Shown piece after piece: positions 1 through 55,240 of a stretch of 64,000 bases of DNA. The position numbers and the translations under genes were made by a program. The notes under the pieces are model-generated. The model was not told the DNA's origin and made no database searches. It saw only the letters and a program-made list of their open reading frames with translations. This stretch comes from Actinomycetota bacterium (GTDB lineage Bacteria; Actinomycetota; Geothermincolia; Fen-727; Anoxymicrobiaceae). The stretch covers positions 76,708-140,707 of the forward strand of contig JAHJCO010000059.1 of the NCBI GenBank assembly GCA_018831265.1. The letters are read 5' to 3'. Numbering within the stretch: position 1 is the stretch's first letter; each line of letters opens with the position of its first letter.

Positions 1-2584
1 AAGCCACACAGTGGGCGGGGATGCGGACATGTTCGTCACCTGGGGCTCAGCAGATACGGGGAAAGCCGTCAGCGGCGTGTCCTTCATCAAGCCCGGTACC
101 GACGCCGGCCACGCCGTCGCCGTCGGTCCGGACGGCAACCCGGTGGTGGTGGGGACGACGTCAAACGGCTCGGACCTGGACCTGTACGCGGGCAAGTTCC
201 CCGCGGCGGGCGCCGGCACCGAGCTGTGGAAGATCCAGCTCGACGGCGGTGGCAACGACGTGTTGAACGGGGTCGCGGTCGGCGCCGACGGTAACCCCGT
301 GCTGGTGGGCCGCGTTTACGAAAGCGCGTCCGGTGACGACAACATCTGGATACGGTGCGTCGACGGGCAGAACGGGACGATGGTCTGGCAGCGGACCGTC
401 GACAGCGGAAAGGGAAACGACGTCGCCGACGCCGTGGCCGTGGGGCCCGACCTCTGCCCCGTGGTGGTGGGGGAGTACAACAGCGGGAGCACCATGGACA
501 TCTGGGTGCGCAAGTACGACGGCCAGGGGAACACGCTCTGGACCAGCATCATCCCGGGCGCCGTCGGCCACGACGCCGCCACGGGCGTTGCGATCGGCCT
601 GGACGGGGACCCCGTCGTCTGCGGTTACCTGCACAACGGGGCGGACACCGACACCTGGGTGATGAAGTACGATGGGCAGAACGGGCAGTCGCGCTGGTCG
701 AGGCTCATCGACAGCGGCAAGGGCTGGGACCAGGCCTTCGGCGTGGCGATCGGGCCGGACGGCAACCCGGTGGTAAGCGGCCACTTCGAGAGCGGGACCT
801 CGTGGGACCTGTGGGTGAACAAGTTCAGCGGCGCCACGGGCGGCACGGTCTGGAACCGCCTCACCAAGGGAGGGGTCGAGTGCAGCGGGCGCTCCATCTG
901 CTGCGATGCGACCGGAAACGTGATAGTCGCCGGGTACTGCACTGTGGGCACCACAAAGGATCTGATCGTCAAGAAGTACCCACCCGGTAAGTACACTTCA
1001 ATGACCACCGTCGGGTTCAAGAAGCCGGTGGAGAAGCAGGGCCAGGCGCTCTCGGGTTTCATGGAGAAGCCGGGCGCGAAGCACAAGGGGTCGGTCATCT
1101 ACCAGCTCTCCTCGAACGGGAAGGACTGGTACTACTACTCGAACGGCTGGAAGAAGGCCGCGGGCCCGGCGCAGTCCAACAGCGCCGGCGAGGTCGACCT
1201 GAGGATCGGCGACTTCGACCAGACCGCGGCATCGAAGCTGTACCTGCAGGCGTTCCTGCAGTCGAGCGGACTGGAGCAGGTGGAGCTGGACGCGGTCACG
1301 GTCTACCTGTCTCCGCCGGTCCCCAGCGGCAACAACGACCAGTGGTACCTGGCCGAGGGTTCGACCAACTGGGGGTTCTCGACCTACATCACGGTGCTGA
1401 ACCCCAACCCGAGCGCGGTGAACGCCGAGATAACCTACATGACCGGGACCGGCGCGGTGAGCGGCGGGACGGTCACGATGCCGGCGATGAGCCAGGCGAC
1501 CATAGACCCGGCGCAGGTGGTTCCCGCCACCGACTTCTCTACCAGGGTCCGCTGCGTGGAGGGCCTGCCGATAGCGGTCGACAGAACCATGTCCTGGACC
1601 GGAACGGGCGCCGCGGCCCCCGAGAGCCACTCGTCCATCGGGGTCACCTGGCCGAGCTGCGCGTGGTGCATGCCCGAGGGCTCCAGCGCCTGGGGCTTCG
1701 AGACCTGGACGCTCGTGCAGAACCCGAACCAGATCAACGCGCAGGTCAGCATAACCTACATGATGGAGAACGAAGCCCCGGTCATGGTGAACGATACGCT
1801 CCCGCCGCTCTCCCGGAGGACCTACAGCATGAAGGATCACATCGGGGAGAAGGACGCCTCCATCAAGGTGACCAGCGACGTCCCGGTCATCCCCGAGCGT
1901 GCCATGTACCGCAACAACCGGCGTGAGGGGCACGAGTCGATCCCCTGCGAGCTGCCCGGGTACGATTACTACCTGGCCGAGGGCTCTACCGCATGGGGTT
2001 TCACCACCTACCTGCTTATCCAGAACAACAACAAGGGGACGGCGGACGTAACGGTCACCTACATGACGTCGAACGGTCCGGTGATCCAGCCGACGTTCCA
2101 GATGCCCATGAGCTCCCGGAAGACGATAAGGGTGAACGATGTGCTCCCGAACGCGGACTTCTCCATCAAGGTCAGTTGCCCCGGCACGATAATAGCCGAG
2201 CGGGCCATGTACTGGAACTCGCCCACAGGCGAGGTGTGCCACGACTCGGTGGGGACAGCCGACGCACACACAACCTACCACCTGCCCGACGGCGATACCA
2301 CCAACGGAATCGAGACCTGGACCCTGGTCCAGAATCCCAACGGGAGCGACGTACAGGTAGAGGTGCAGTACCTGACGCCGGACGGCAAGGGCAACAAGTC
2401 GTTCACCGACACCGTACCAGCCAACTCCCGAAGGACATACTCGATGGCCGACCACATCACAAACGGGCGGGCAGGCATAGTGGTTACCTCGAAGACGGCG
2501 GGCGCGAAGATCATCGTCGAGAGGTCGATGTACTCCGACGGCCGGCAGGCCGGCACCGATACCATCGGGGGTTACAGGGACTGA
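1..2584 (+). CDS. Secreted repeat protein, 5'-partial (runs off window start): ~55-aa beta-propeller-like repeats followed by 4 copies of the ~110-aa 'YLAEG' module
   Basis: Frame is open to nt 2; no signal peptide, unlike the paralogs; repeated 'GVAVGPDGNPVV.G' blocks; four modules with WYLAEGST.WGF / LVQNPN / TYMT / ERAMYWN / GHDSIG motifs; paralog of 18080-20728, 50911-53784, 60341-61921. Confidence 0.75.
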   Translation, partial: SHTVGGDADMFVTWGSADTGKAVSGVSFIKPGTDAGHAVAVGPDGNPVVVGTTSNGSDLDLYAGKFPAAGAGTELWKIQLDGGGNDVLNGVAVGADGNPVLVGRVYESASGDDNIWIRCVDGQNGTMVWQRTVDSGKGNDVADAVAVGPDLCPVVVGEYNSGSTMDIWVRKYDGQGNTLWTSIIPGAVGHDAATGVAIGLDGDPVVCGYLHNGADTDTWVMKYDGQNGQSRWSRLIDSGKGWDQAFGVAIGPDGNPVVSGHFESGTSWDLWVNKFSGATGGTVWNRLTKGGVECSGRSICCDATGNVIVAGYCTVGTTKDLIVKKYPPGKYTSMTTVGFKKPVEKQGQALSGFMEKPGAKHKGSVIYQLSSNGKDWYYYSNGWKKAAGPAQSNSAGEVDLRIGDFDQTAASKLYLQAFLQSSGLEQVELDAVTVYLSPPVPSGNNDQWYLAEGSTNWGFSTYITVLNPNPSAVNAEITYMTGTGAVSGGTVTMPAMSQATIDPAQVVPATDFSTRVRCVEGLPIAVDRTMSWTGTGAAAPESHSSIGVTWPSCAWCMPEGSSAWGFETWTLVQNPNQINAQVSITYMMENEAPVMVNDTLPPLSRRTYSMKDHIGEKDASIKVTSDVPVIPERAMYRNNRREGHESIPCELPGYDYYLAEGSTAWGFTTYLLIQNNNKGTADVTVTYMTSNGPVIQPTFQMPMSSRKTIRVNDVLPNADFSIKVSCPGTIIAERAMYWNSPTGEVCHDSVGTADAHTTYHLPDGDTTNGIETWTLVQNPNGSDVQVEVQYLTPDGKGNKSFTDTVPANSRRTYSMADHITNGRAGIVVTSKTAGAKIIVERSMYSDGRQAGTDTIGGYRD

Positions 2585-18079: not shown

Positions 18080-20728
18080 TCAGTCGCTGAAGCCACCGAT
18101 GGTCTCGGTGCCCGCGCCCCTGTCGTTCCAGTACATGGCGCGCTCGACCATTATCTTCTTGCCGGTGGAGGTGCAGTTGACCAGCACCGCCGCCCGCCCG
18201 CTGGCTATCTTGTCCGCCATGTTGTACGTCTTGCGCGAGTTGGCCGGTATTGAGTCGGTGAACGTCTGGTTGCCTGTCCCGGTGGCTGTCAGATAAGTGA
18301 TGGTTATGTTGACCGCGCTCCCGTTGGGGTTCTGCACCAGGGTCCAGGTCTCCCTGCCGTTCGATGTCTCGCCGTCCGGCAGGTAGAACGCCTGGTGGGG
18401 CGACGCCATCCCGATGGAGTCGTGGCACGCCTCGCCGGTGCCCTTGTCCCAGTACATGGCCCTCTCCGCGATGATGGGCTCGGTGCCGTGCACCTTGGTG
18501 GAGAGGTCCACCCCCGGCTTGACGTCGTTCACCCTGATGGTCTTGCGGGAGTTCGCCGGCATCTGGAAGACGTCCTGCGGGTCCGGGCCTTCGGTCGTCA
18601 TGTAGGTCACCGTCACGTCCACCGCGGTGCTGTTGGGGTTCTGGATCAGGACAAAGGTGGTGAAGCCCCACGCCGTGGTGCCCTCGGCCAGGTAGTAGTC
18701 GGTGGCCGGCGAGGTGGTCCCTATGGAGTCGTGCCCCTCGCGGCGCGAGTTGCGGTACATGGCGCGCTCAGGGATCACCGGCACGTCGGACGTCACCTTA
18801 ATCGATGCGTCCTTGGCGCCGATGTGTTCGGCCATGTTGAAGGTCTTACGCGTGCCCCCGTCCACCACCACGTCGAACTCCCGGGGGTCGGCCCCCTCTA
18901 TCATGTAGGTGATGGTGCAGTTGGCATCGGCGCTGTTGGGGTTCTGAATGAGCAGCCAGCACTCGAAGCCCCACTCCGATGAGCCTTCCGCCAGGTACCA
19001 GGTTGTGGCCGGCGCGGTCACCCCCACCGAGTTGTGGGACTCCTCGGCAACGGCTCCACCGTTTGTGCCAGCGCCGGCTCCACCGCCTGTCCACCTCATG
19101 GTGCGGTCAACCGCTATCATCTTTCCCTGGGCGCAGGACACCCTGGTGGAGAAGTCAGTGGCGCCCAGCACATCGGCCGGATTGATGGTGGTCTGGGAGT
19201 TGGCCGGCAGGTTGAAGTCCCCTCCGTCCACCGGGCCACCGGATGTCTGGTAGTCGACCGCGGCGGTGACCGCGGTGCTGTTGGGGTTCTGGATGGTTAT
19301 GTAGGTGGAGAACCCCCAGGCGGTGGTCCCCTCCGCCAGGTACCAGCTGTAGTAGTCGGTGGACATGTGCTGGGCGTACAGGTCGAGGTTGCCCACCCCG
19401 CTGTACTGCACCGGGAAAGCCATTATGGCGCCCCCGTACCCGTCCGGTATCATGTCCATCCAACCTGAGTCGTCCGCCACCCCGAATACCGCCTCCCCGT
19501 TGGTCTTCCAGCGCGCCAGGCCGCTGGAGGTGATGCTCTGCGCGTACCACTGGAGGCCCACCCGGCTGTCGTTCCAGGACACTATGGCCCCGCCGCTTCC
19601 GTCTCCACATATCTCCGGGTCTTCAATGTTCCAGTTCCCGGATACCAGCTGTACCCCTCCTGCCGTCCACTGCGCGCTTCCCGAGGAGTCAATGCGCTGG
19701 GCGTATACGGCCATCTTGGAGGGCAGCAGCCTTCCGTCCTCCCAGCTCACTATGGCCCCGCCGCTTCCGTCCGCCACTATCACCGGGTCGGACCCTGCGT
19801 GCAGCCCTACCCCCTGCGCGGTCCAGGCCGCCGCGCCCGCTGCTGTCACCCTCTGGGCACGAACATTCGAGCTGCCGACCGACCAGGACATGATGGCCCC
19901 GCCCCCCGAGTCCGGGATCATGTGCAGGTCATCGCAGTCGCCCAGGTTGCACATGAGCACGCCGTTGGCAGTCCATTTCATGTTGCCGCTGGAGTCCGCC
20001 TTCTGGCAGTAGACGTGGGTGTCGGCGCCGCTCCTCAGGTCGTCCCAGGAGAACACTGCCCCACCTGAGCCATCCGCCACCACGTTCGCGTAGCGCTGGG
20101 TCCCTGCCGCGGTGCAGACCGCCTTGCCCGCAGCTCCCCACCTGCGGGTGCCGCCGGAGTCGAGGCGCTGGGCGTATATATCGTCGGAAGCCCCGCGGGT
20201 ATCGCCCCAGGCGATTATCGCCCCACCGGAGCCATCAGTGGCTATGTCCCCGTTCAGCTGCTCGTTGGCCAGGTCGTTACTGACCAGGATACCGTTTGCC
20301 GCCCACTGGGCCACTCCGTTAGAGTTTATCCTCTGGGCATAGACGTGCTGGTTGAACAATGGACCGTCCGACCATATTATTACCGCTCCGCCGGAGCCGT
20401 CCGACACGATTGTGGGATACTCCTGCGTGCCTGCCGCGTTGCAGATGGGCACGCCGCTGGCTGCCCACTTCTTCGCCCCGCTCGCGTCTATGCGCTGTGC
20501 GTATATGTCGCTGTCGCCGGTGCGCATGTCGCCCCACACCATTATTGCGCCGCCTTGCCCGTCCGGGATCGTCTCAGGGTCCTCCTGGTCCCCGGCGGCG
20601 GTGCAGACCGCCTTGCCGTTGGTGCCCCAGCGCTGCACCGCGGCCATGGCGGAGGTTGCGGTGAGCAGGCACACCAGTAGTGCGGCCAGCGTCACGAAGA
20701 GAAGTGAACGGACGGTGAAGCGAGACAT
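18080..20728 (-). CDS. Secreted repeat protein: signal peptide, ~9 copies of a ~48-aa repeat (W..NG..VC.AAG.Q..P.IV.DGSGGAIV.W.D.R...DIYAQRI), then 4 'YLAEG' modules
   Basis: Start ATG at 20728 with AGGGGG RBS (track ORF extends to 20785); signal peptide MSRFTVRSLLFVTLAALLVCLLTATSAMA. Confidence 0.8.
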   Translation of the reverse strand: MSRFTVRSLLFVTLAALLVCLLTATSAMAAVQRWGTNGKAVCTAAGDQEDPETIPDGQGGAIMVWGDMRTGDSDIYAQRIDASGAKKWAASGVPICNAAGTQEYPTIVSDGSGGAVIIWSDGPLFNQHVYAQRINSNGVAQWAANGILVSNDLANEQLNGDIATDGSGGAIIAWGDTRGASDDIYAQRLDSGGTRRWGAAGKAVCTAAGTQRYANVVADGSGGAVFSWDDLRSGADTHVYCQKADSSGNMKWTANGVLMCNLGDCDDLHMIPDSGGGAIMSWSVGSSNVRAQRVTAAGAAAWTAQGVGLHAGSDPVIVADGSGGAIVSWEDGRLLPSKMAVYAQRIDSSGSAQWTAGGVQLVSGNWNIEDPEICGDGSGGAIVSWNDSRVGLQWYAQSITSSGLARWKTNGEAVFGVADDSGWMDMIPDGYGGAIMAFPVQYSGVGNLDLYAQHMSTDYYSWYLAEGTTAWGFSTYITIQNPNSTAVTAAVDYQTSGGPVDGGDFNLPANSQTTINPADVLGATDFSTRVSCAQGKMIAVDRTMRWTGGGAGAGTNGGAVAEESHNSVGVTAPATTWYLAEGSSEWGFECWLLIQNPNSADANCTITYMIEGADPREFDVVVDGGTRKTFNMAEHIGAKDASIKVTSDVPVIPERAMYRNSRREGHDSIGTTSPATDYYLAEGTTAWGFTTFVLIQNPNSTAVDVTVTYMTTEGPDPQDVFQMPANSRKTIRVNDVKPGVDLSTKVHGTEPIIAERAMYWDKGTGEACHDSIGMASPHQAFYLPDGETSNGRETWTLVQNPNGSAVNITITYLTATGTGNQTFTDSIPANSRKTYNMADKIASGRAAVLVNCTSTGKKIMVERAMYWNDRGAGTETIGGFSD

Positions 20729-20967
20729 CTTATACCCCCTGTTCGAAGCCTGCAGCCCTGATGGTGAATACATCACAACCGACATCTCCCCGTTTGTCTT
20801 CCTGACACAGCGATTCTACCCCTTTCCCTATCGATCTTCGCATCTTCATCACCAATTCCACCGCCTGCTCCGCCTCAGCCTATCACCTGGGACTTCCGGG
20901 GCGGGCGAGTAGGCATCAAGGTCATTGCACTTCAAATGAATTGAATCTGACCTGACCCCCGGTTGAG

Positions 20968-22253: not shown

Positions 22254-23399
22254 CTACAACGCGGTCCCCCCGACCGCCCGCCCGCCCCTCTCGAACGCCA
22301 TCCACCTGCCCTCTTCTATAGCTTCCAGGTTCGCGATGCGCTCGGCGACCAGCCCCTTGCCCCAGGCGGACAGTTCTTCGAGGTTGGTCGTCATGCGGGC
22401 GGCACGGCTCTGCACCGAGGCGTCGCTCCACTTGAGGCCGAGCTCGTCGCGCTGACGGCGCAGGAGATCTTGCGGCGTCTCGCTCCAGCGGTACGGCGGC
22501 ATGAACATGTGATCCAGGCCCATGTCGTTGACCGGCAGAGGGGAGTCCTTCGCGTTGTTGACCAGCGAGTCGAGCTTCTTGACAGCATCCAGCAGCGGAG
22601 CCGGCTCGCCGGTCAGGCGGACCGCGATGGAGTCCGCCAGGATGTCGTCGTGCCCGCGGGCGTTCCTTCGCTTCTTGTTGAAGAAGACCATGAGCAGGAG
22701 GGCCATCCACAGGATGAACCCCACCGCTACCGCGACCAGGGGCCTGCCGCCGCTCCCCGCCATGGGGACCGCGAACAGGGCGAGGGCGGTGTAGAGGGCG
22801 AAAAGCCCGGTGATCAGCGCGTCGGGGGTTATCGGCCCGGGGCGCGCCAGGTAGTCGCCGGCGAGAATACCGCCCAGCTCGTGGGCCATTATCGCCCCGA
22901 CCTGCGCGTACGTCAGGTCCGCCTCGAGGGCGGCGACCGTCACGCCGATCTCCGGCCCGCCATCGGCCTCGAACGCCAGGGCGTTGGGCCGATCACCCCT
23001 GATCACCTTCACCCGAGGCGCGGGTACCCCGGCCTCCTCGCTGACCTGGTCCAGCGTATTGAGAAACCGCCCGAGCTTCGCGATGTCGAAGCCCCCCGCG
23101 CCCACGGTCAGCGCGCCGAATGCGGCTCCGTCACGGATGATGGACGGGACGTAGAAGGTCACCATGCCGACGAGGAAGAGGACCAGCACCACCAGCGCGG
23201 CGATGAGGAGCGCCGTGCGCCCGCCCGTGCCCCGCACCAGCGGGCTGAACGTGGTGTTGCCGGCCGCGTAGGGTACGATGACGAGAACCATCACCAGCAC
23301 GATCATGAGCGACAGGACCGCCAGCATCGCCCGGCGGGCGAGCAGGGCCCTTCGCCGGTATCGCTTTATGGCTTGCTTCACGTCGGGATTGAGGCTCAC
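22254..23399 (-). CDS. Membrane M48/M56-like peptidase homologue with degenerate HExxH (HELGG)
   Basis: 'AIMAHELGGILAGD'; 'GHDDILADSIA'; TM helices; paralog of 20968-22224. Confidence 0.5.
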   Translation of the reverse strand: MSLNPDVKQAIKRYRRRALLARRAMLAVLSLMIVLVMVLVIVPYAAGNTTFSPLVRGTGGRTALLIAALVVLVLFLVGMVTFYVPSIIRDGAAFGALTVGAGGFDIAKLGRFLNTLDQVSEEAGVPAPRVKVIRGDRPNALAFEADGGPEIGVTVAALEADLTYAQVGAIMAHELGGILAGDYLARPGPITPDALITGLFALYTALALFAVPMAGSGGRPLVAVAVGFILWMALLLMVFFNKKRRNARGHDDILADSIAVRLTGEPAPLLDAVKKLDSLVNNAKDSPLPVNDMGLDHMFMPPYRWSETPQDLLRRQRDELGLKWSDASVQSRAARMTTNLEELSAWGKGLVAERIANLEAIEEGRWMAFERGGRAVGGTAL

Positions 23400-23417: not shown

Positions 23418-23461
23418 TCGCATCGGGGTCAGACGCCGATGCGAATGGGGTCAGGCTGGGC
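23418..23461. repeat. REP-like hairpin, variant loop (TTCGCATCGG-GGTCAGAC-GCCGATGCGAA) plus GGGGTCAGGC half-site
   Basis: Identical hairpin at 31097-31125. Confidence 0.8.
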
Positions 23462-23573
23462 CTCCATCATGGTGGAGAGCCTCACCAGCGGCAAGGAAGT
23501 CATGTGCGAGAGGGCCATGTACTGGAACTCGAGGGGAGCGGGCACGGACACCATCGGAGGGTATGCGGAATGA
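23444..23573 (+). pseudogene. C-terminal remnant of a 'YLAEG'-module protein
   Basis: Encodes ...SGKEVMCERAMYWNSRGAGTDTIGGYAE*, matching the last ~35 aa of the paralogs (ERAMYWN..GAGTDTIGG); no upstream domain or start. Confidence 0.55.
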
Positions 23574-23745
23574 AAGAAAACCTCAGCACGTCTTGTTGCA
23601 CTCGATCCGGCCATAATGAAAGAAGACCTCAGCACGTCTTGTTGCGCTCTTCGAGTCCGATCGACCTGTTGTCACAGTGCAAGAAGATGTCTGAGGTATT
23701 GTTTCATTCATCGGTGAAAGAAATGGTCTGAGGTTTTCTTTCACT
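23571..23745. repeat. AT-rich palindromic repeat cluster, family 3 (GAAAGAANACCTCAGACCATTTCTTTC and variants)
   Basis: Direct and inverted copies; same family at 30019-30093 and 56091-56207. Confidence 0.7.
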
Positions 23746-24532
23746 ACAGGTGGCTGAGGATCTTACTGAAGAAGTCCTGGGTTCGGGGGTGCTTCGGGTT
23801 GTTGAAGATCTCGGTCGGGTCGCCGTCCTCGACGACCAGTCCCTCGTCCATGAAGATCAGCCGGTCGCCGACCTCACGAGCGAACCCCATCTCGTGGGTG
23901 ACCACGATCATGGTCATCCCCTCGCGGGCCAGGTCCTGCATGGTGTCCAGGACCTCCTTGACCAGCTCGGGGTCGAGCGCGCTCGTCACCTCGTCGAACA
24001 GCATCACGTCAGGCTCCATGGCCAGCGCCCGCGCGATGGCCACGCGCTGCTGCTGGCCCCCGGAGAGATGGGCCGGGAAAGCGTCCGCCTTGTCCCCGAG
24101 CCCGACCTTCCCCAGCAGCTCGACCGCCTTGACGTTCGCCTCCTCCTGCGAGATGCCCCGTACCTTGAGCGGGGCGAGCGTCACGTTCCTGATGGCCGTG
24201 AGGTGCGGGAAGAGGTTGAAGGACTGGAAGACCATACCCACCTTCTCACGGACCTTGTTGATATCCGTGGCCCGGTGGGTCACGTCCACGCCCTCTATGT
24301 AGATGTGCCCTCGCGTGGCGTGCTCGAGCCCGTTTATACAGCGGAGCATGGTGCTCTTGCCGGACCCGCTCGGCCCCACCACGACCACCACCTGCCGGGG
24401 AAGAACCTCCAGGTCGATCCCCTTGAGCGCGTCGAAGTCGCCGAACTTCTTGTGCAGGCCCTCGATCTTTATCATGGGCTCGCCCGGCTTCAACTCCATC
24501 GGCGGCTCGTCGCCGTCGCGGTGGTCGGCCAT
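23744..24532 (-). CDS. Amino-acid ABC transporter ATP-binding protein
   Basis: Walker A 'GPSGSGKST', signature '[15 protein letters not shown]', Walker B '[11 protein letters not shown]'; ATGA overlap with the permease gene. Confidence 0.9.
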
Positions 24533-25575
24533 CAGTCTCCCTTCGCCAGCCTGTTTTCCAGGTAATGCACCCCACGCATGGCGGGGATCGTCACCAGCAG
24601 GAAGAACAGCGCCACGCCCACCAGCGGGGTCACGTTGGCGGCCTGACCCATGCCCTCTTTCCCCATCATGAACGCCTCGCCCATTCCGATGAAGGCGACC
24701 AGAGCGGTGTCCTTGGTGAGCATGATGAACTCGTTGGAAAGGGGCGGGATGACCCGCCGGACCGCCTGTGGCAGCACCACGTACCTCATGGACTGCAGGT
24801 AGGTCATGCCCAGCGACCGTGCGGCCTCCATCTGCCCCTTGTGGATGGACTCGATACCCGCCCTGTATATCTCGGCCTCGTAGGCCGAGTAGCACACCGT
24901 GAGCGCGACCACCCCCGCGGTGAACCGGCTGAAGTTCAACCCCAGGTAGCTGAGCCCGAAGTAGATGATGAAGATCTGGAGGATGAGGGGCAGGCCCCGG
25001 ATCACGTCGATGTAGATCGCGGCGAAGACCCGGAAGGTGCGTAGCCTGGATATCCTCAGCATGGCTATCAGCAGCCCGAATATGAGGATGAAAACCTCCG
25101 AGACCACGGCGAGCTTGAGGGTCGTCAGGAACCCGCGCGCCACCTCCGGCCACCACTCCTTGATGGTCTCCCAGTCGAAGAAGTCCTCGGTGAAAGCGCG
25201 CAGGCGGTCCTGCATGAAGAGCACGAACAGCCCTGCCGCCACCAGTGCCAGCCCGATTATCCCAAGGGTCTGGCCGGCCGTGGCCAGTCCCACGCCGCCC
25301 AGGTCGCTGTGGAGTATCTGCCTCTTTGCGACGCGCGCGAACACGATGGCCAGGATGGAGGCGATCACCGGGAGCCCGGAGAGCCCAACGCTCCCGAGGA
25401 CATTGCCCGCCTCGAGCTCGGTCGAGAAGACGGAGAGGAAGATGGCCACGACACCCGGGACCGAGAGCAGCCCGAGTATCCCACAGACCACGGAAGCCTT
25501 GGCCCAGCCGCTGATGTCGGGGTTCTCGAACTCCGATAGCGGCTCCGCGAACCGCCCGGCCGGCGCTTCTTCCAT
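24532..25575 (-). CDS. Amino-acid ABC transporter permease (polar amino-acid family) with extended N-terminus
   Basis: EAA-like loop, His/Glu/Gln/Arg/opine-family permease pattern; extra N-terminal TM helices. Confidence 0.85.
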
Positions 25576-37000: not shown

Positions 37001-37220
37001 CGCGGATCTCTGTGCGATGCTCGCAACCGGCTGCTTCCCGTTCACCATCAACCCGAACCTCGACCTGACCTACAGCGATTTCGTCTTCGCGTACGGCGAT
37101 GTCGCCGATGCCGCCAGGCAGGCGAGAGTCAAGGTAGATAACCTCGCCAACGAGGCGCTGCTGCCTTACCGCGAGCTGCGCGCCCGCGAGCTGGACGAGG
37201 AACAGGAAGAGGGCGAATGA
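34071..37220 (+). CDS. addB: AddB/RexB-like PD-(D/E)XK nuclease subunit (no Walker A)
   Basis: GTG start with GGGAG RBS; C-terminal RecB-type nuclease motif 'FEVCDYKSG'; ~1050 aa; immediately upstream of and overlapping the AddA-like gene. Confidence 0.7.
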   Translation: MNFQSNTLVEAIASLCAEEPLKPKIIIAPSNRAGNQWLERVAMSGRPVLNAGSRTLRGLALELSAPLLVERGLQLVGGIRAQVLMDRAFARISPKEPYLSRLEPGPGLVRTLLGAVRDLRLAGLDADAVDERAFEVRSKGAEVKALLEAFESVLAEGGLTDYAGCLRLAVERVTSDRGLPLDSLVAIPADLEERLAGLERSLWSAMPESNRRILEVDLPGDPSTDSSRRYMLSFALHPQTAPDPGPDGGGVRMFRAVGEVNEVREVFRRVVEEGLPFDDVEVLYTEPATYLPLLFELASRQAADGSDELPVTFLEGVPTRYSRPGRALAGWLEWVRGGDLPQGTLVRMVHDGLLEIPAVEGGDLSFARLGAILRSVAIGAGRERYLASLDSEARALTSQIVGLDEAEEEGRDARRRIGLSERLEGLGALRELIGGLLEVVPSTGGQAEALSSASLFLERYARHSGKFDEYSRVILLDSVAEIERCLQDGEVAGFEPWSWLDEVISSISVEGSGPAPGRLHTAPVDKGGHSGRGHTFIVGFDEARFPAAGRQDPVLLDGERERLSDDLLTGEARLTRELEQLMLLFARLRGEVTLSYCCRSLIDDRELFPSPVLLSAYRVLEKRDGDQQDLNAYCGDPVSFAPASPESAIDTTEWWLSLACGRTDRLVPTGLVVASFGHLGRGMRAREMRESPEFTEYDGYVPEAASECDPAREGARPLSASALEELARCPLEYFLHRVLRIDPLEEYEIDPNEWLDARQVGHFLHGCFRIFLERLDERGERPSRDAHLAELRRLFDDELAYWRRVVPPHNEASYKAQARMLERAACIFLTEEELHCVDRRPAYFEVSVGRMPDLPGRRGNEIDTAEPVLVSLPKGMVFRAHGQMDRVDELPGAPEGRRFEVCDYKSGGAGRYDVNDPFACGRHVQNILYTLLLQSRLDELFPGARVEGFSYYFPSLYGRGERVGWTMDELEAGETVLADLCAMLATGCFPFTINPNLDLTYSDFVFAYGDVADAARQARVKVDNLANEALLPYRELRARELDEEQEEGE

Positions 37221-40684: not shown

Positions 40685-41514
40685 GCGAGCACATGCTTCT
40701 GCCCGAGGTCGACTTCTGCGCCTTCGACCTGGAGACGACGGGGCTGTCCAACTTCAGCCGGATAGTGGAGGTCGGGGCGGTCCGGTTCCGCCTCGAGGCG
40801 GTGCACGACCGTTTCAGCGAGCTGGTCCACCCCGGCAGGAGCATCCCCGAGGTGGTCATCGGCATACACGGAATCACCGACACCATGGTCGCGGGGGCCG
40901 CGGCGGCGCCGGAGGTTATCGATCGGTTCTTCGAGTTCGCGGACGGGTGCGTTCTAGTCGCGCACAACGCGGCGTTCGACTCCGGGATAATGGCCACCGA
41001 GTTGCACAGGGCCGGGCTGGAGCCGCCCGAGCCCCTCATCCTCGACACCATCGCGCTGGCCAGGAGGTTCCTGCCGAGGCTGCCGAGCTACGGGCTGGGC
41101 GCCCTCTCGCGCGATCTGGGCATCGGGCGGCCCCGCAAGCACCGCGCCCTCGAGGACGCGGAGGCCTGCAGGAGGATCTTCGAGAGAACCGTGCTCTCGG
41201 TCCCGGAGTGGCAAGGCCGGCCACTGGACCTGCTGGCCGATGCCGCCGGCGGCTGCACCCTGCGCTACCGGCCGCAGGCGCCCTCCGATCTGCCCCCCGG
41301 CATGGAGGCCATCCTCGCCGCCCTCGAGAGGCGCGGTGACGTGGTGGTAGTCTACAGGGGGGGCAGCAAGGGCACCGTGCCCAGGCGACTGTCGCCGGTA
41401 TCGGTGTACTCGGCGGGGGGTCACTGCTACATGGAGGCCCGCTGCCACGTGGACAACGTGACCAAGTCTTTCAGGGTCGACCGCATCGCCAGCGTAGAGC
41501 TCTGGGAGGACTGA
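40681..41514 (+). CDS. DEDDh 3'-5' exonuclease (DnaQ-like) fused to a C-terminal WYL-like domain
   Basis: Exo I 'FDLETTG', Exo II 'LVAHNAAFD', Exo III 'HRALEDA'; C-terminal 'VVVVYRGGSKG...RLSPVSVY..HCYMEARC...SFRVDRI' WYL pattern; ATGA overlap with the AddA-like gene. Confidence 0.7.
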   Translation: MSEHMLLPEVDFCAFDLETTGLSNFSRIVEVGAVRFRLEAVHDRFSELVHPGRSIPEVVIGIHGITDTMVAGAAAAPEVIDRFFEFADGCVLVAHNAAFDSGIMATELHRAGLEPPEPLILDTIALARRFLPRLPSYGLGALSRDLGIGRPRKHRALEDAEACRRIFERTVLSVPEWQGRPLDLLADAAGGCTLRYRPQAPSDLPPGMEAILAALERRGDVVVVYRGGSKGTVPRRLSPVSVYSAGGHCYMEARCHVDNVTKSFRVDRIASVELWED

Positions 41515-41521
41515 GCTTCCC

Positions 41522-43204
41522 ATGGCCAGGATGATCCCCGAGATAGAGGTCGGCCGGTATCCCCACGGCGAGGGACTCCTCTACCGCTGGCTCAAGGGGC
41601 TGCCCGACGATTACCGCGTCTTCCACGGCGTCCACCTGCTCCGGCAGTCCGGCGGCTCGCTGAGGCGCGGAGAGGCCGACTTCGTGGTGCTCCACAAGGA
41701 CCTGGGCTTCCTGGTGATAGAGGTCAAGGGCGGCAAGGTCACCTGCCAGCCGGGTAGGGGCCGGTGGACCTCGACGGACTACCGGGGCGAGGAGCATCCG
41801 ATCAAGGACCCGTTCCTGCAGGCTGAACGCAACGTCAACGCCATCGTCGAGCGCATCAGGGACTCAGGGGTGTTCGGCCCCGGCCCGCTGAAGACCCTGC
41901 CCGTCACGGTGGGCTACTGCGTAGCCTTCCCCGACGGGGTGGCGCAGCAGAAGAACCTCCCGCTGCACGTGGTGCCGGAGGTCGTCATAGACAGCCGGGA
42001 CGCGGCCCGGATGGCCGCGCGGATCGAGGGGCTGTTCGGCGCCTGGCGAAAGAAGAGGCCCGGATCGCGCGGCTTCACCCCCCGGGAGTTCAACGACCTG
42101 TGCAACAAGGTCCTGCTCACCCGGTTCAACGTGACCGTGCCCCTGAGCGTGAGATTCGGGAGGGAGAAGGAGCGCTTCGAGTCCCTGACCGACGAGCAGT
42201 GCCGCATCCTGGAGACCGTCTCCGGCGGGAAGCGCGCCCTGTTCAGGGGATACGCGGGGACGGGCAAGACGCAGTTGCTGATGGAGAACGCCAGGCGCTT
42301 CGCCGCCGCCGCCGCCCGGGTACTGGTGGTCTGCTACAACCAGCCGCTCGCGGAACTCCTCTCACAGTGGGCCGCGAACGTCTGCGGAGCCGGAGGCGTA
42401 ACGGTCAGGCACTTCCACGGCCTCGCCGAGGAGTATGCCGGCGAGGCGGGTCTCGACTTCGATGTCCCGCCGGAGGACGAGCCGGACGCGCTGCAGGCCT
42501 TCTACGAGAGGGGATCGGCGGCCCTGCTGGAGGCGGCGCTTGCCGAGGCGCCCGGACGTTTCGATTGCGTGCTGGTGGACGAGGGCCAGGACTTCCACCT
42601 GGAGTGGCTGCGGGTGCTCTCGGAGCTGCTCGACCCGGCGGGGATGGACGTCTTCCACATCTTCTACGACGAGCAGCAGAACGTCTACGGCAAGGAGCTC
42701 GAGTTCCCCTTCGAGGCCGTGCCCTACGACCTGAGCTATCAGATGCGCAGCACCGCGAACGTCTGCGAGGTCGCCCGGAAGGCCGGCTCGGTCGATATCC
42801 GGTGCTTCCCAGACTGGGTCAAAGGTGCCCCCGTGAAGTACTTCCCCTACCGTGAACCGTCCGAGCAGGTCGCCCTGATCGAGAAGGTGGTCAGGGAGCT
42901 TCTCGACAAAGGCATCGACCCCTCACAGGTGATGGTGATCTCGTCACACCGCAGGGCCCGCTCCTGCCTGGCCGGGGTCAACCGACTGCAGGGGTACCCG
43001 CTGGTGGAGTACCGGCCCCCCGGCGAGGAGGACACCATCGCGTTCTCCAGCCTGCACCGCGCCAAGGGCCTCGAGTCGGACGTGGTGATCTTCTGTGACG
43101 TGGACGGCGGCGAGCCGTACTGCAGCCGCTCAAACCAGTACGTGGCGGTCTCGCGCGCCCGCCACCTGCTCTACATCATCCACCGCAGGGACTGGAAGCT
43201 TTGA
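41522..43204 (+). CDS. NERD-domain nuclease fused to SF1 (UvrD/DUF2075-like) helicase
   Basis: N-terminal NERD 'GEADFVVLHKDLGFLVIEVKG'; Walker A 'GYAGTGKTQ', Walker B 'VLVDEGQD'; C-terminal 'SLHRAKGLESDVVIF'. Confidence 0.75.
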   Translation: MARMIPEIEVGRYPHGEGLLYRWLKGLPDDYRVFHGVHLLRQSGGSLRRGEADFVVLHKDLGFLVIEVKGGKVTCQPGRGRWTSTDYRGEEHPIKDPFLQAERNVNAIVERIRDSGVFGPGPLKTLPVTVGYCVAFPDGVAQQKNLPLHVVPEVVIDSRDAARMAARIEGLFGAWRKKRPGSRGFTPREFNDLCNKVLLTRFNVTVPLSVRFGREKERFESLTDEQCRILETVSGGKRALFRGYAGTGKTQLLMENARRFAAAAARVLVVCYNQPLAELLSQWAANVCGAGGVTVRHFHGLAEEYAGEAGLDFDVPPEDEPDALQAFYERGSAALLEAALAEAPGRFDCVLVDEGQDFHLEWLRVLSELLDPAGMDVFHIFYDEQQNVYGKELEFPFEAVPYDLSYQMRSTANVCEVARKAGSVDIRCFPDWVKGAPVKYFPYREPSEQVALIEKVVRELLDKGIDPSQVMVISSHRRARSCLAGVNRLQGYPLVEYRPPGEEDTIAFSSLHRAKGLESDVVIFCDVDGGEPYCSRSNQYVAVSRARHLLYIIHRRDWKL

Positions 43205-50448: not shown

Positions 50449-50838
50449 TCACTGCCAGGAAGTGGAGACCTTCTTGACCGACTCCATCACCAGGTTCACG
50501 GCCTTGATGTACTTCATGACGGTCTGCATATTGCCCTCGAAGAGCAGCTTCTTGGTCATGATGGCCTGCAGGGGGTCCTGCTTGCCGGCCACGACCTCCT
50601 TCCACAGCGCGTAGTCGCCGGTCAGGGTGAAGTCGCACTTCCTGTCCTCGCCGCTGACCGCCTCGAGCACGGCCCCGTCCTTCATGTGTGTCCAGAAATG
50701 GATGTCGCCGCCCTTGGCGCCCGTCGCCACGAAGTGTATCGTCGCGTCGAACCCCTTGCCGGCCCTGGGAAGCTCCTTGTCCTTGTTGACCGTGGTCTTG
50801 AGTAACTCCACCCACTCCTGGCTTCCGAACTGTGCCAT
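50449..50838 (-). CDS. SCP2 sterol-binding domain protein
   Basis: ~129 aa; 'FDATIHFVATGAKGGDIHFW...LTGDYALWKEVVAGK' SCP-2 fold pattern; GGAGGGGG RBS. Confidence 0.65.
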   Translation of the reverse strand: MAQFGSQEWVELLKTTVNKDKELPRAGKGFDATIHFVATGAKGGDIHFWTHMKDGAVLEAVSGEDRKCDFTLTGDYALWKEVVAGKQDPLQAIMTKKLLFEGNMQTVMKYIKAVNLVMESVKKVSTSWQ

Positions 50839-50910
50839 GGCGCCCCCTCCTCGGTTAGCCGCTCTACCGCCGAGGATACTATCCAATCGACCATCGGGTG
50901 TCGAGCGTCG

Positions 50911-53784
50911 TTGACCACCCAGGGGGGCGGCCCTATCATGGCGACAAGAAGCCGTACCGAGCATCCCTGGAGGAACGCCGTGAAGAGAAGCATCGCCGCC
51001 GCCCTGCTGACCGTGCTGATCTGTGCCGTCGCCGCGCCGGCGATGGTGCTGACACCGGCGATTGCGGGGCAACCGGCGGGTCCGGCCGTTCCGCGGCCCG
51101 GGCGGTACGCGCCCGGCGAGGTGCTGGTCAGGTTCAGGGAGCCGGTGGGAGCGGGGGCGGTCGAGAGCGCGCTGACGGGACTGGGGGCCAGGCGGGCGAA
51201 GCGCCTCACCGTGAGCGGCATCGAGCTGCTGGAGGTGCCGGGCGGGGTCGAGGAGGCGATCGAGGCGTTGCGGGCCTCGGGGCTCGTCTACTACGCGGAG
51301 CCGAACTACGTGCGCAGCGTCGACTTCACCCCCAACGACACCGATTTCGACAAGCAGTGGAACCTCCACGATACGACGCCGGTGGACGCCGATATTAACA
51401 TGCCCGCCGCCTGGGACATCGAGACAGGGTCGCCGGGCGTGGTGGTGGCGGTGCTGGACACCGGGATCGCCTACCGCGACGGCGGTGGCTTCCATAAGGC
51501 GACTGACCTGGACACGACCGCTTTCACCCAGGGCTATGACTTCATCAACGACGACCAGTACGCCGACGACGACCACGGACACGGCACGCACGTCGCGGGC
51601 ACCGTGGCGCAGAGCACTAACAACAACTTCAGGGTGGCCGGCGTGGCGTTCGGGTGCACACTCATGCCGGTGAAGGTGCTGGACGGCGAGGGCAGTGGCA
51701 CTGACGTCGAGCTCATCCAGGGTCTTGAGTTCGCCTCCACCCACGGGGTCGAGGTCGTGAACATGAGCCTGTCCGGCCCGGAGCCCAACGCCGCGCTCGA
51801 AGAGGCTCTGAGGCTCGCCCGGAGCCGCGGGACGCTGCTGTGCGCCTCGTCGGGAAACGACGACGACCCGCTGGTAGGGTACCCGGCGGCCTACCCTTCG
51901 TGCGTCGCGGTGGGCGCTACAAACAAGAACAAGAACAGGTCTTCGTACTCGAACTACGGCAGCGAGCTGGACGTCTGCGCCCCGGGCGGTGATGGGCACC
52001 TGTTCGCTCAAGGCATCATCCAGGAGACGTACCAGACCCTGGGTAATCCATCAAGCCCGTTCGTCGAGGTTTCGATGCAGGGCACCTCCATGGCCTGCCC
52101 CCACGTCGCGGGCGTGGCGGCCCTGGTGCGGTCCGAGCACACCACCTGGACGGTGGACGAGGTCACCGGGGCCATCAGCTCGACATGCAGGGACATCGGA
52201 GCGGCCGGCTGGGACAACGAGACCGGCTGGGGCCTCATCGACGCGGAGGCGGCCCTGCTGGCCCCCAGGCCGTCGGGGACCGGTCCCGCGATATCCTCGG
52301 TGACGCCCGACCACTCGGACACGGGGGCCGACGCGCATCTGACCATCACCGGCGCCAACTTCGCGACGCCGGCGAAGGTGGCGTTGCAGCGCGAAGGCGA
52401 GCTGGCGATCACCGGGACCGCCATCGCGGTGAGCGGCTCCACACGTATCGACTGCGACGTGGACCTCACCGGTGCCCAGGCCGGCCCATGGAACCTGGTG
52501 GTCGAGAACGACGACATGCTGGGCGACTCGCTGGACGGAGGGTTCGTGGCCGATCCTTCGATGAGTACGACCTGGTACCTGGCCGAGGGCTCGACCGCAT
52601 ACGGCTTCGAGGAGTACGTCCTCATACAGAACGCGGGCGGGACGCAGGCCAGCACTACGGTCACCTTCATGACCCCGGACGGGTCGCTGGACCCGCTGGC
52701 CGTACCGGTGCCCGCGCAGAGCAGGACCACCATCCGGGTCAACGACTTCGCATTGGACACCGACGTATCGACCAAGGTGACCTCCGATGCCGAGATAATC
52801 TGCGAGCGTTCCATGTACTGGGGCGGCAGGATCGAGGGCACGGACTGCATAGGGGTCGAGGCGCCCGCGTACTCCTGGTACCTGGCGGAGGGGACGACCG
52901 ACTACGGCTTCGACACCTACCTGCTGATACAGAACCCCCAGAGCAAAGTGGCAACCGTCTTCGTGACCTACATGACGCCGGAGGGCCCCGTCGAGAAGGC
53001 GCCTTTCGCCATGCCCCCCAACAGCCGCGAGACAATCGTGGTCTCGGAGGACCTGCCGGCCGAGGAGATGTCGTTCAAGGTGCTCTCGGACCAGAGGATC
53101 ATCGCCGAGCGTTCCATGTACTGGGACGGGATGCGCGGGGGGCACGACTCGATCGGCACCGTGACGCCGTCGGAGACCTGGTACATTGCCGAGGGCACGA
53201 CCGACTGGGGCTTCGACGAGTACGTGCTGCTGCAGAACCCGGGCTCCGAGAACGCGACCGTGACGCTCACCTACATGACGCCGGAAGGCCCGGTTCCGCA
53301 ACCGCCGGTGACGGTCGATGCGGGTACCCGTCAGACCATCCACGTGGACGACGTCCTGCCTGCCGAGGACGTCTCGGTGAGGGTGGAGTCCGACGTCGGG
53401 GTCATCGCCGAGCGCGCGATGTACTGGAACAACGGGACCGGCAAGGCCGGGCACTGCGCGATCGGGGTCCTGCAGTCCAGGCAGGAGTGTTTCCTGGCCG
53501 AGGGCACCACCGACTGGGGCTTCGACGAGTGGATACTCATCCAGAACCCGAACCCGGAGCCGGCGAACATCGGCGTCAAGTACATGACCCCGCAGGGCCC
53601 GGTGGACCGGGACGGCTTCGTGCTTGCGGGAAACAGCAGGGTTACCGTGCACGCCAACGAAGACCTGGTGCCGGCGAGCGATGCCTCGGCCTATGTCTTC
53701 TCCGACCGGCGGATAATCGCGGAGCGCTCGATGTACTGGAACGCCCGGGGCGGCGGCCACGTCTCCACCGGGATGATGAAGTAG
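50911..53784 (+). CDS. Secreted subtilisin-like serine protease (S8, with I9 propeptide) fused to IPT-like domain and 4 'YLAEG' modules
   Basis: Signal peptide; catalytic 'VLDTGI', 'HGTHVAG', 'GTSMACPH'; four C-terminal modules (WYLAEGSTAYGF..., WYLAEGTTDYGF..., WYIAEGTTDWGF..., FLAEGTTDWGF...). Confidence 0.9.
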   Translation: MTTQGGGPIMATRSRTEHPWRNAVKRSIAAALLTVLICAVAAPAMVLTPAIAGQPAGPAVPRPGRYAPGEVLVRFREPVGAGAVESALTGLGARRAKRLTVSGIELLEVPGGVEEAIEALRASGLVYYAEPNYVRSVDFTPNDTDFDKQWNLHDTTPVDADINMPAAWDIETGSPGVVVAVLDTGIAYRDGGGFHKATDLDTTAFTQGYDFINDDQYADDDHGHGTHVAGTVAQSTNNNFRVAGVAFGCTLMPVKVLDGEGSGTDVELIQGLEFASTHGVEVVNMSLSGPEPNAALEEALRLARSRGTLLCASSGNDDDPLVGYPAAYPSCVAVGATNKNKNRSSYSNYGSELDVCAPGGDGHLFAQGIIQETYQTLGNPSSPFVEVSMQGTSMACPHVAGVAALVRSEHTTWTVDEVTGAISSTCRDIGAAGWDNETGWGLIDAEAALLAPRPSGTGPAISSVTPDHSDTGADAHLTITGANFATPAKVALQREGELAITGTAIAVSGSTRIDCDVDLTGAQAGPWNLVVENDDMLGDSLDGGFVADPSMSTTWYLAEGSTAYGFEEYVLIQNAGGTQASTTVTFMTPDGSLDPLAVPVPAQSRTTIRVNDFALDTDVSTKVTSDAEIICERSMYWGGRIEGTDCIGVEAPAYSWYLAEGTTDYGFDTYLLIQNPQSKVATVFVTYMTPEGPVEKAPFAMPPNSRETIVVSEDLPAEEMSFKVLSDQRIIAERSMYWDGMRGGHDSIGTVTPSETWYIAEGTTDWGFDEYVLLQNPGSENATVTLTYMTPEGPVPQPPVTVDAGTRQTIHVDDVLPAEDVSVRVESDVGVIAERAMYWNNGTGKAGHCAIGVLQSRQECFLAEGTTDWGFDEWILIQNPNPEPANIGVKYMTPQGPVDRDGFVLAGNSRVTVHANEDLVPASDASAYVFSDRRIIAERSMYWNARGGGHVSTGMMK

Positions 53785-53824
53785 CTAATAGTTGGTGCCA
53801 GGCACCTTAGTGTAAAAGTATTAG
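53785..53824. repeat. Palindromic element, family 2 (CTAATAG..GGTGCCAGGCACC..GTATTAG)
   Basis: Copy of 11950-11998. Confidence 0.65.
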
Positions 53825-53901
53825 TCTGTCCGGTTGTCAATGGATGTTCGGGGACCGTTCCCGGGGGCTTACGTAGCCGGTAGCGGGCAGGAGGTTCCGC
53901 C

Positions 53902-54120
53902 TTGATATTGAAGATGCCATGGATAGACCGTGGCCGATGCGATCGCAAGCTGGACTGCGCGGCGGCCAGGGTGTGCCCGAGAGGGGCGCTGGAGGTCGGG
54001 CCCGAATCCGAGGAGGAGGAGGGGCGCGCCTCGGAGTATCCCCTGGTGGACCTGGAGCACTGCCGGCGGTGTGGCGATTGCGCCAAGGCCTGCCCGGAGG
54101 GCGCCGTGAAGATGGTGTAG
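53902..54120 (+). CDS. 2x[4Fe-4S] ferredoxin
   Basis: 'CDRKLDCAAARVCP' and 'CRRCGDCAKACP'; GGAGG RBS. Confidence 0.7.
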   Translation: MILKMPWIDRGRCDRKLDCAAARVCPRGALEVGPESEEEEGRASEYPLVDLEHCRRCGDCAKACPEGAVKMV

Positions 54121-54174
54121 AATGGCGCGCGTGGGAGCCGGGGCTCCCGCGACGCCGAGAGACGGGGAGGAAAG

Positions 54175-54492
54175 ATGGCCGACGTGCTGGAGATAACCGA
54201 TCAGAATTTCGAGACCGAGATCATCAATGCAGACAAGCCGGCGCTGGTGGATTTCTGGGCGCCGTGGTGCGGCCCCTGCAAGATGATGCACCCGGTCATC
54301 GAGGGCCTCAGCGACGAGATGGCAGGCAAGGCGGTCGTCGCCAGGTGCAACGTGGACGAGAACCCGGAGCTGGCCGGACGCTTCGGGGTTACCGCCATCC
54401 CTACAATCGTGTTCTTCAAGGGCGGGCAGGAGACCGACAAGGTCATTGGCGTCTGCCAGCCCGACGAGCTTCGCAAGCGCCTGGAGGCTTAG
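54175..54492 (+). CDS. trxA: Thioredoxin
   Basis: 'WAPWCGPCK' active site; 105 aa. Confidence 0.9.
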   Translation: MADVLEITDQNFETEIINADKPALVDFWAPWCGPCKMMHPVIEGLSDEMAGKAVVARCNVDENPELAGRFGVTAIPTIVFFKGGQETDKVIGVCQPDELRKRLEA

Positions 54493-54502
54493 CGGCCCGG
54501 CC

Positions 54503-55240
54503 GTGTCTGCTCTACAGATCAAGGGTTTCATACCAAGCTCGATGCTCGACTGGGAGGGCATGCTGGTCTCCACCGTCTTCCTGCCGCGCTGCAACTTCCG
54601 CTGCCCGTTCTGCCAGAACCCCGACCTCGTGCTGAATCCCTCCACCCTGGAAACGGTGCCGCTGGGAGAAGTGCTCGACTTCCTGGCCGACCGAAAGGGA
54701 TGGATAGAAGGCGTCTGCATAACCGGCGGCGAGCCCTGCCTGCAGGAGGGTCTGCCTGACCTCTGCGCCTCCCTGAAGGGCGCCGGGGTGAGGGTGAAGC
54801 TCGACACCAACGGCAGCCTGCCCGAGGCGCTCTCGGGGCTCATGGACGAGTGTCTGATCGATTACGTGGCGATGGATGTCAAGGCTCCGCTGGAGCCAGG
54901 CCCGTACCGGGTGGCCACGGGGGTGGACGACGCCGGGTTGCTGGACCGGGTGCTCGAGAGCATCGAGCTGATACGTTCGTCCGACCTGGAGAGGGAGTTC
55001 CGAACGACCGTGGTACCCATGATGCACGGCCCCGAGGAGGTGTCCCGCATCGCAAAGGGCCTGGAGGGTGAGGAGCGCTACGTGCTCCAGCACTTCAGCC
55101 CACGCGATACCCTTGACCCGCGGTTCGCGAAGTTGCGGCCTTTCACCGAGGAGGACATGGACGGGATGCTCGCTGAGGCGAGGCGTCATATACCGGGCAC
55201 GATCGTGCGGGGGGCGCCGGCGGCGCTGGACGAAGCGTGA
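54503..55240 (+). CDS. Radical-SAM glycyl-radical-enzyme activase family protein (NrdG/PflA-like)
   Basis: 'CNFRCPFCQNP' CxxxCxxC; ~245 aa; GTG start inferred. Confidence 0.65.
   Translation: MSALQIKGFIPSSMLDWEGMLVSTVFLPRCNFRCPFCQNPDLVLNPSTLETVPLGEVLDFLADRKGWIEGVCITGGEPCLQEGLPDLCASLKGAGVRVKLDTNGSLPEALSGLMDECLIDYVAMDVKAPLEPGPYRVATGVDDAGLLDRVLESIELIRSSDLEREFRTTVVPMMHGPEEVSRIAKGLEGEERYVLQHFSPRDTLDPRFAKLRPFTEEDMDGMLAEARRHIPGTIVRGAPAALDEA

Follow-up and report, generated by a model that had tools for sequence, protein, structure and literature searches.

The closest described relatives of the system considered here belong to the ASRAH superfamily, which De Souza, Iyer and Aravind defined in 2009 and divided into three families (Biol Direct; PMC2739507). 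The first consists of stand-alone cytoplasmic ASRT-like proteins that form tetramers, as do TM1070 and ASRT; the second of secreted proteins, mostly from Chloroflexi, in which a tetrad of ASRAH domains is "always fused to an amidase"; and the third of an actinobacterial lipoprotein with an ASRAH dyad. The same study predicted that these domains bind sugars or peptidoglycan and that the dyads and tetrads of the secreted families adopt tetramer-like structures. Here we examine a subtilase gene (50911..53784, + strand) within a 64,000-nucleotide stretch of DNA from an Actinomycetota bacterium (GCA_018831265.1, contig JAHJCO010000059.1), the whole of which we call the window. The gene product ends in four tandem modules, as do three further proteins encoded in the window. 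Each module is an ASRT-like "ASRAH" domain as defined in 2009, and the block of four, which we refer to as the tetrad, is a unit of fixed copy number carried by a wide variety of secreted proteins. Our favoured reading, to which we give a probability of about 0.55, is that the tetrad is a non-covalent retention module that would bind wall glycans at sites between its modules. The features of the subtilase gene are as follows.

50938..53784, + strand: coding sequence of the subtilase-TIG-tetrad protein, stop codon included (open reading frame (ORF) list, upstream sequence and Pfam domains)
50938..51066, + strand: Sec-type signal peptide, MATRSRTEHPWRNAVKRSIAAALLTVLICAVAAPAMVLTPAIA/GQ, the slash marking its end (sequence reading and a crude hydrophobic-stretch heuristic)
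51091..51306, + strand: Fervidolysin_NPro-like subtilase prodomain, residues 61-132 (Pfam PF22148, E 9e-14)
51436..52233, + strand: Peptidase S8 catalytic domain, residues 176-441 (Pfam PF00082, E 2e-58)
52285..52515, + strand: IPT/TIG beta-sandwich spacer domain, residues 459-535 (Pfam PF01833, E 1.6e-4)
52567..52866, + strand: ASRT-like (ASRAH, DUF5719-type) module 1, residues 553-652
52870..53169, + strand: ASRT-like module 2, residues 654-753 (module profile E 3.7e-53; AlphaFold2 model)
53173..53478, + strand: ASRT-like module 3, residues 755-856 (module profile E 5.3e-52; alignment consensus)
53482..53781, + strand: ASRT-like module 4, residues 858-957, at the protein end (module profile E 2.4e-50)

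The C-terminal 405 residues of the protein are thus made up of four modules of 100-103 residues each, slightly shorter than the ~110 first estimated, which are 40-54% identical to one another. The motifs quoted for the module in the original prediction are present, in the order given there. Pfam places DUF5719 (PF18986) over the repeats in three stretches, at 75.0 bits against a gathering cut-off of 26.2 (E 7e-21), and close homologues already carry the NCBI name 'DUF5719 family protein'. When a profile built from 46 aligned tetrads (A1) was searched against PDB sequences, its best matches were TM1070 (1NC7; E 0.007) and ASRT (2II7/2IIA; E 0.008-0.01), both marginal, and no other family outscored them; together with the fold and hallmark residues described below, this places the module among the ASRT-like domains. 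Identity to ASRT and TM1070 is 18-30%, with marginal E-values of about 0.01; a single-module profile reached the TM1070 and ASRT sequences weakly (E 0.04 and 0.48, respectively), and a single tetrad sequence used without a profile matched nothing among the PDB sequences. PF07100, the Pfam family of the stand-alone proteins, was absent from the Pfam scan of the subtilase protein at E <= 1 and is present in the precomputed annotations of some homologues. In structural comparison, Foldseek gave a probability of 1.00 and a target-normalised template modelling (TM) score of 0.80 against TM1070, and the module folds as a beta-sandwich of eight strands in the ASRT/TM1070 topology. Next in structural similarity, behind ASRT and TM1070, come carbohydrate-binding modules (CBMs) and the beta-sandwich domains of glycosidases. 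Two sequence hallmarks define the superfamily, namely a Trp that follows a polar residue and starts strand 1, and a near-invariant Asn that ends strand 2 (PMC2739507). The Asn is found in all 16 modules of the window and at all four positions of the 46 aligned tetrads. The Trp is found in 9 of the 16, the others having Tyr, Phe, Ile or Cys in its place; at tetrad positions 1 and 2 its conservation is 90% or more. As to the original claim that the module lies in no named or characterised family, the part concerning name and fold does not stand, given the DUF5719 score, the ASRT/TM1070 fold and the description of both the superfamily and its secreted tetrads in 2009 (PMC2739507); the part concerning function does, the extracellular role being a published prediction. 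Full-text literature searches returned no papers for DUF5719 and, for ASRAH, the 2009 paper only, the remaining matches being personal names.

Set against the described families, the subtilase protein is neither a family-1 ASRT nor a canonical DUF5719 lipoprotein, and it fails the "always amidase" definition of family 2. TM1070 (1NC7) and ASRT (2II7; PF07100) are single-domain cytoplasmic proteins of ~115-130 residues, whereas the window protein is secreted and has four such domains in one chain. Their SHEshChhN signature is not conserved in the window modules, in which strand 2, counted back from the Asn, reads F-[EDTS]-x-[YWF]-x-L-x-Q-N, and in which the segment before strand 2 is six residues shorter (HMMER alignment). 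With DUF5719 the protein shares both a passed gathering score and a phylum, Actinomycetota, but the match is confined to the repeat core of the 319-position model (~40-255 over the four window proteins and 48-133 for the best stretch of the subtilase). We tentatively take the actinobacterial dyad lipoprotein of family 3 to be the core of DUF5719; the window protein differs from it in having four domains rather than two and in lacking both the lipobox Cys and the family-specific N- and C-terminal extensions, and the WhiB, glycosyltransferase and inactive zincin genes that accompany the lipoprotein are absent around the window subtilase. The family-2 amidases of Roseiflexus, Chloroflexus and Herpetosiphon (PMC2739507) resemble our protein in being secreted and in joining a catalytic domain to a tandem ASRT-like tetrad, and three Amidase_3 + tetrad proteins (P0065, P0102 and P0118) occur among the homologues of the window tetrad. 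Family 2 was, however, defined as always amidase-fused and found mainly in Chloroflexi, whereas the passenger here is Peptidase_S8 + TIG and tetrads of the Geothermincolia type are attached to dozens of passengers, with up to 12 paralogues per metagenome-assembled genome (MAG) among the best 80 loci. The domain, its tetrad arrangement and the homologous sequences as such are already known. What is new is the quantisation of the module's copy number to four or eight, the in-register inheritance of the tetrad and the breadth of its passengers in Geothermincolia-type MAGs.

The evidence that the tetrad behaves as one unit begins within the window itself. A hidden Markov model (HMM) built from the four copies of the subtilase protein found exactly 16 copies across the 64 kb, the number originally counted, with per-copy E-values of 1e-19 to 1e-53. 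They belong to four proteins, encoded at 11..2584(+), 18080..20785(-), 50911..53784(+) and 60329..61921(+), each of which has exactly four at its C terminus, a pattern far beyond chance. The three paralogous tetrads, all delimited with the module HMM, are the following.

60692..61918, + strand: tetrad of the TIG + tetrad protein 60329..61921(+), 49-57% identical in register to the subtilase tetrad
18083..19351, - strand: tetrad of protein 18080..20785(-)
1337..2581, + strand: tetrad of protein 11..2584(+), the N terminus of which is cut by the window edge

The tetrads of 11..2584 and 18080..20785, which are the closest paralogues, are 59-67% identical when compared in register and 27-44% identical out of register. 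Module 3 of the tetrad also carries a two-residue insert (NNGTGKAGH) that is specific to position 3 and, from the alignment consensus, conserved family-wide. It follows from this difference in identity, and from the position-3 insert, that the tetrad is old and has been inherited in register as a block. A recent tandem duplication as the source of the four copies was considered and rejected on the same in-register match between paralogues.

Copy number is fixed well beyond the window. Exactly four copies are present in 114 of the 120 closest homologues; the remaining six have three and look like fragments, being 290-424 residues long and encoded mostly on contigs of ~1-3.6 kb. As that list is biased towards four copies, a single-module profile (A3) was used instead and searched against 1.84 billion cluster representatives, giving 7753 clusters at E <= 1e-3 and 3280 at E <= 1e-30. 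Among the 141 new best matches to this profile, 130 have four copies and seven have eight, arranged as two separate tetrads, and the rest are fragments or rare exceptions. An AlphaFold2 model of the 405-residue four-domain chain has a predicted TM score (pTM) of 0.92, which implies a defined and compact arrangement of the modelled domains. TM1070 and ASRT form tetramers, and the secreted families of the superfamily carry dyads and tetrads (PMC2739507); by analogy, the tetrad is best read structurally as a single-chain pseudo-tetramer. The strict four-or-eight copy number would make it a clean example of a homotetramer turned into a single-chain pseudo-tetramer. The original guess, of a possible anchoring or substrate-targeting role and a closed pseudo-tetrameric assembly, agrees with the 2009 prediction, the copy number, the in-register conservation and the census of fusions described next.

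The distribution and the passengers of the tetrad bear on its purpose. At least 559 tetrad loci were detected across the GTDB species genomes, and the best 80 of these were retrieved. All 80 are from Actinomycetota MAGs, labelled Geothermincolia, Anoxymicrobiaceae or Solincola with some Acidimicrobiales, and among them single MAGs contribute as many as 12 and 8 loci. Among 54 complete proteins, a Pfam census of the sequence outside the tetrad identified S8 proteases (15), Big_7 (9), TIG (8), malectin (7), glycoside hydrolase GH116-like (6), FG-GAP (4), BNR (4) and FlgD_ig (4) domains, together with C39-like and C1 cysteine proteases, GH39, GH5, beta-helix and metallophosphatase domains. Precomputed annotations add Amidase_3, YkuD L,D-transpeptidase, GDSL esterase and CAP domains on the closest homologues, and across tetrad proteins as a whole there are more than 30 passenger families. 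The commonest architecture is TIG + tetrad, a protein of ~530 residues found in clusters with many members, and some homologues consist of a signal peptide and the tetrad alone. In 136 of 141 proteins the tetrad is C-terminal, and a crude test found a signal-peptide-like N terminus in 202 of the 229 homologues that start with Met (about 88%). Tetrad genes can also cluster, since two of three consecutive same-strand genes at 1-8078 of locus L081 (GCA_936421195.1) bear tetrads: the first encodes a 1540-residue malectin + GH116-like + FlgD_ig + tetrad protein and the second an Amidase_3 + tetrad protein, while the third encodes a 703-residue unannotated protein.

Taken with the architecture of the subtilase, these observations are consistent with the following model. 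The protein would be made as a pre-pro-enzyme of the fervidolysin type and exported by Sec. The prodomain would assist folding and then be removed, both of which are established behaviour for subtilases. The mature catalytic domain would remain tethered, through the TIG spacer, to the C-terminal ASRT-like tetrad, whose four domains are predicted to pack as one compact unit rather than as beads on a string and so to mimic, in a single chain, the TM1070/ASRT homotetramer. The tetrad itself would be non-catalytic and lectin-like, binding a glycan in the envelope of the producing cell, whether peptidoglycan or a polysaccharide linked to the wall. In this way it might retain the protease, along with dozens of other tetrad-bearing secreted enzymes, non-covalently on the cell surface. 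We view the tetrad as a probable generic localisation module, and not as the partner of one particular enzyme, because one and the same terminal module is found on dozens of unrelated secreted enzymes, because some of its fusion partners work on the peptidoglycan of the cell itself, and because it occurs in large families per genome and in stand-alone tetrad proteins. Wall-glycan binding is the most likely form of localisation because this signature coincides with a beta-sandwich, CBM-like fold and with the 2009 prediction, and the amidase and YkuD fusions point to the cell's own wall as the ligand.

The functional analogy is with the SLH and CWB2 triads of Firmicutes, in which a fixed, small number of tandem repeats forms one pseudo-symmetric terminal unit common to many secreted and surface proteins. 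The tetrad is like them in its fixed repeat number, its terminal position and the many proteins that carry it in each genome. It is unlike them in fold, in coming in fours rather than threes and in being acidic where SLH and CWB2 are usually basic, and the triads have known polysaccharide ligands. A bolder extension of the retention model, which we regard as tentative and put somewhat short of even odds, is that the tetrad constitutes the general non-covalent surface display system of Geothermincolia and relatives, acting as a pseudo-tetrameric lectin that would offer as many as four sugar sites to a lineage-specific wall glycan and would hold much of the secreted enzyme repertoire. Were that so, it would play the role taken elsewhere by SLH, CWB2 or sortase systems, and would add a new fold and a four-fold geometry to the wall-anchoring modules. 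Even in its narrower form, a wall-glycan anchor would show how an abundant class of uncultured Actinomycetota from the subsurface and from sediments presents its extracellular proteases and glycosidases, and would provide a sequence tag for prediction of the surface proteome, the module being matched by 7753 clusters (50% identity). The role of the founding member of the ASRT superfamily is disputed. The anchor, if real, would be the first testable function for the extracellular ASRT branch, whose only literature is the 2009 computational prediction. It would imply nothing unusual about the protease itself.

Several points weigh against wall-glycan retention. Sugar binding by extracellular ASRAH domains is a prediction made in 2009 (PMC2739507) and not an experimental result, and the experimental literature on ASRT deals with DNA looping (PMC8660804). 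The SHEshChhN ligand signature is not conserved, H25 being replaced by Glu, Asp, Thr or Ser and C29 by Leu (by ungapped count from the Asn). The tetrads are acidic, with a mean pI (isoelectric point) of 4.9, and that of the subtilase protein has a calculated pI of 4.3 and a net charge of -31. Wall-binding modules of the SLH kind are usually basic. The neighbourhood of the subtilase gene yields no functional clue, and the closed tetramer geometry is proposed from the pTM, the copy number and analogy. A few proteins break the four-copy rule, among them P0130 (701 residues), which has at least seven copies, and P0164, which has one isolated copy in addition to a tetrad. The former is apparently cut at both ends and contains consecutive ~110-residue copies with near-identical scores; it resembles a homogeneous tandem array of recent origin more than a tetrad.

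A last point of this kind, that the many glycoside hydrolase passengers fit substrate targeting equally well, leads to the most serious rival, in which the tetrad is a CBM that recognises a polysaccharide or glycoprotein from the environment (plant or microbial necromass, for instance) and concentrates hydrolases on an insoluble substrate rather than on the wall of the producer. In its favour, many passengers are malectin domains or glycoside hydrolases (GH116-like, GH39 and GH5), the nearest folds beyond ASRT and TM1070 are CBMs and accessory sandwiches of glycosidases, and an acidic tetrad is unlike typical wall anchors. We nevertheless consider this explanation unlikely, as the tetrad is also found on Amidase_3, YkuD, proteases, CAP and FG-GAP proteins, or on nothing but a signal peptide, and a single substrate specificity is hard to square with such varied catalytic partners. 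Moreover, the copy number of CBMs varies freely, but that of the module is fixed at four.

Less likely again is that the tetrad is a protein-protein assembly module, by which tetrads dock on each other or on a scaffold, as in an S-layer lattice or between cohesin and dockerin, with the lattice built from the plentiful TIG + tetrad and tetrad-only proteins. Oligomerisation is the documented property of the stand-alone relatives, both of which are tetramers, and a lattice could explain why the ~530-residue TIG + tetrad protein is the commonest architecture, in clusters of many members, and why families are so large in each genome. If the tetramer interfaces are satisfied within the chain, however, as the pTM of 0.92 suggests, they are not free for intermolecular docking; no candidate scaffold partner was seen, and the link to amidases and transpeptidases is more simply explained by wall binding. 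Finally, a protease-specific accessory domain with a stabilising or maturation role, comparable to the beta-jelly-roll at the C terminus of Tk-SP or to fervidolysin's sandwich domains, is very improbable given that 39 of the 54 tetrad proteins have no S8 domain, that three of the four tetrad proteins in the window are not proteases and that the TIG spacer lies between the tetrad and the catalytic domain.

The protease to which this tetrad is attached is otherwise conventional. The original description of a complete secreted subtilase followed by an IPT/TIG domain and four tandem modules is borne out by the Pfam domains, the triad motifs and the signal peptide, with the correction that Pfam assigns the propeptide to the fervidolysin type (PF22148) rather than to Inhibitor_I9. 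The intact ORF 50911..53784(+) encodes 957 residues; TTG at 50911 opens the longest ORF, and translation probably begins at the ATG at 50938 (MATRSR...), 10 nt downstream of a G-rich stretch. On reading the sequence, the signal peptide ends AIA/GQ, is of Sec type and has no Cys at that point. The catalytic triad and oxyanion Asn are intact (D183 in VLD183TGI, H224 in H224GTHVAG, N316 in SSGN316D and S393 in GTS393MACPHVAG), while the TIG match is barely above its Pfam cut-off (22.0 bits against 20.9). As first noted, there is no sortase-type C-terminal signal: the protein has neither an LPXTG motif nor a hydrophobic tail, and stops at the last module. Like fervidolysin-type subtilases, it has a PF22148 prodomain and an S8 domain followed by non-catalytic beta-sandwich domains, although these are here TIG and the ASRT-like tetrad. 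More specific identities were tried and rejected: the best NCBIfam protease model, mycosin (TIGR03921), scored 177.1 bits against an equivalog cut-off of 278.75, so that no equivalog assignment can be given, and dentilisin, PatA and IteS were far under their cut-offs.

Orthologues of the subtilase in other MAGs are 939-1002 residues long and have the same subtilase + TIG + tetrad architecture, with tetrad identities to the window protein of 62-67% in L001-L004 and L026 and of 47% in L005. In other MAGs an orthologue of the TIG + tetrad gene (60329..61921) is found a few kb downstream of the subtilase-tetrad orthologue (4393-7212 and 10733-11969 in L002; 10749-11183 in L004), and in L004 the LUD/CCG gene likewise lies downstream of it. 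This syntenic neighbourhood supports orthology, rather than mobility, as the probable explanation for the shared architecture. At the DNA level, locus L006 (JAZDFZ010000056.1, 'Actinomycetota bacterium MEGAHIT-group-0.229') is 94-95% identical to 53035-59822 of the window, which places the source of the window close to that MAG; the subtilase protein, read from the ATG, has no exact match on record. The genes around the window subtilase encode SCP2, GNAT, thioredoxin, radical SAM, an ARMT1-like phosphatase, a LUD/CCG oxidoreductase and an acyl-CoA synthetase; an operon-based clue to function was rejected, these neighbours being unrelated housekeeping genes. Long antisense ORFs over the subtilase gene, for example 52051..53760(-), were likewise rejected as artefacts of high G+C content, all domain matches being in the + frame. 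The minus-strand ORF 50449..52011 (520 residues), which overlaps the subtilase gene, is mostly spurious, and the real gene corresponds to its last 129 residues, an SCP2 sterol-transfer family protein (50449-50838, - strand; PF02036, E 4e-14) transcribed divergently from the subtilase.

The passengers of two other tetrad proteins in the window fall outside Pfam. The N-terminal part of the 11..2584 protein (window 11-1336) has no significant Pfam match, CBM65_1 being under the cut-off at E 0.008, and the N-terminal 478 residues of the 18080..20785(-) protein (window 19352-20785) have no Pfam match. The latter region contains about eight repeats of ~54 residues with the motif ...DGSGGAI..W.D.R....(I/V)YAQR..., spaced by 53-56 residues except for one gap of 102 residues that presumably covers a divergent eighth copy; the pattern suggests an uncharacterised propeller-like repeat domain. 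A further trace of the module lies between two minus-strand genes, one for an M48-like peptidase (22254..23399) and one for an ABC ATPase (23744..25156).

23442..23570, + strand: intergenic orphan remnant, the last 43 residues of a module-4-type sequence (...EVMCERAMYWNSRGAGTDTIGGYAE) followed by a stop codon (hmmsearch E 9e-9)

In a tblastn comparison this remnant matches the C terminus of the 18080..20785 protein at 53% identity (E 4e-12), and no upstream modules can be detected whichever frame is read. It appears to be the 3' end left behind by a fifth tetrad gene that may have been deleted or rearranged. Elsewhere in the window and unrelated to the tetrads, at 33900-43204(+), an AddAB-like pair, consisting of a PD-(D/E)XK nuclease protein of 1106 residues and a UvrD helicase-nuclease of 1155 residues, is followed by a NERD + UvrD_C helicase of 560 residues, which fits an ordinary chromosomal region.

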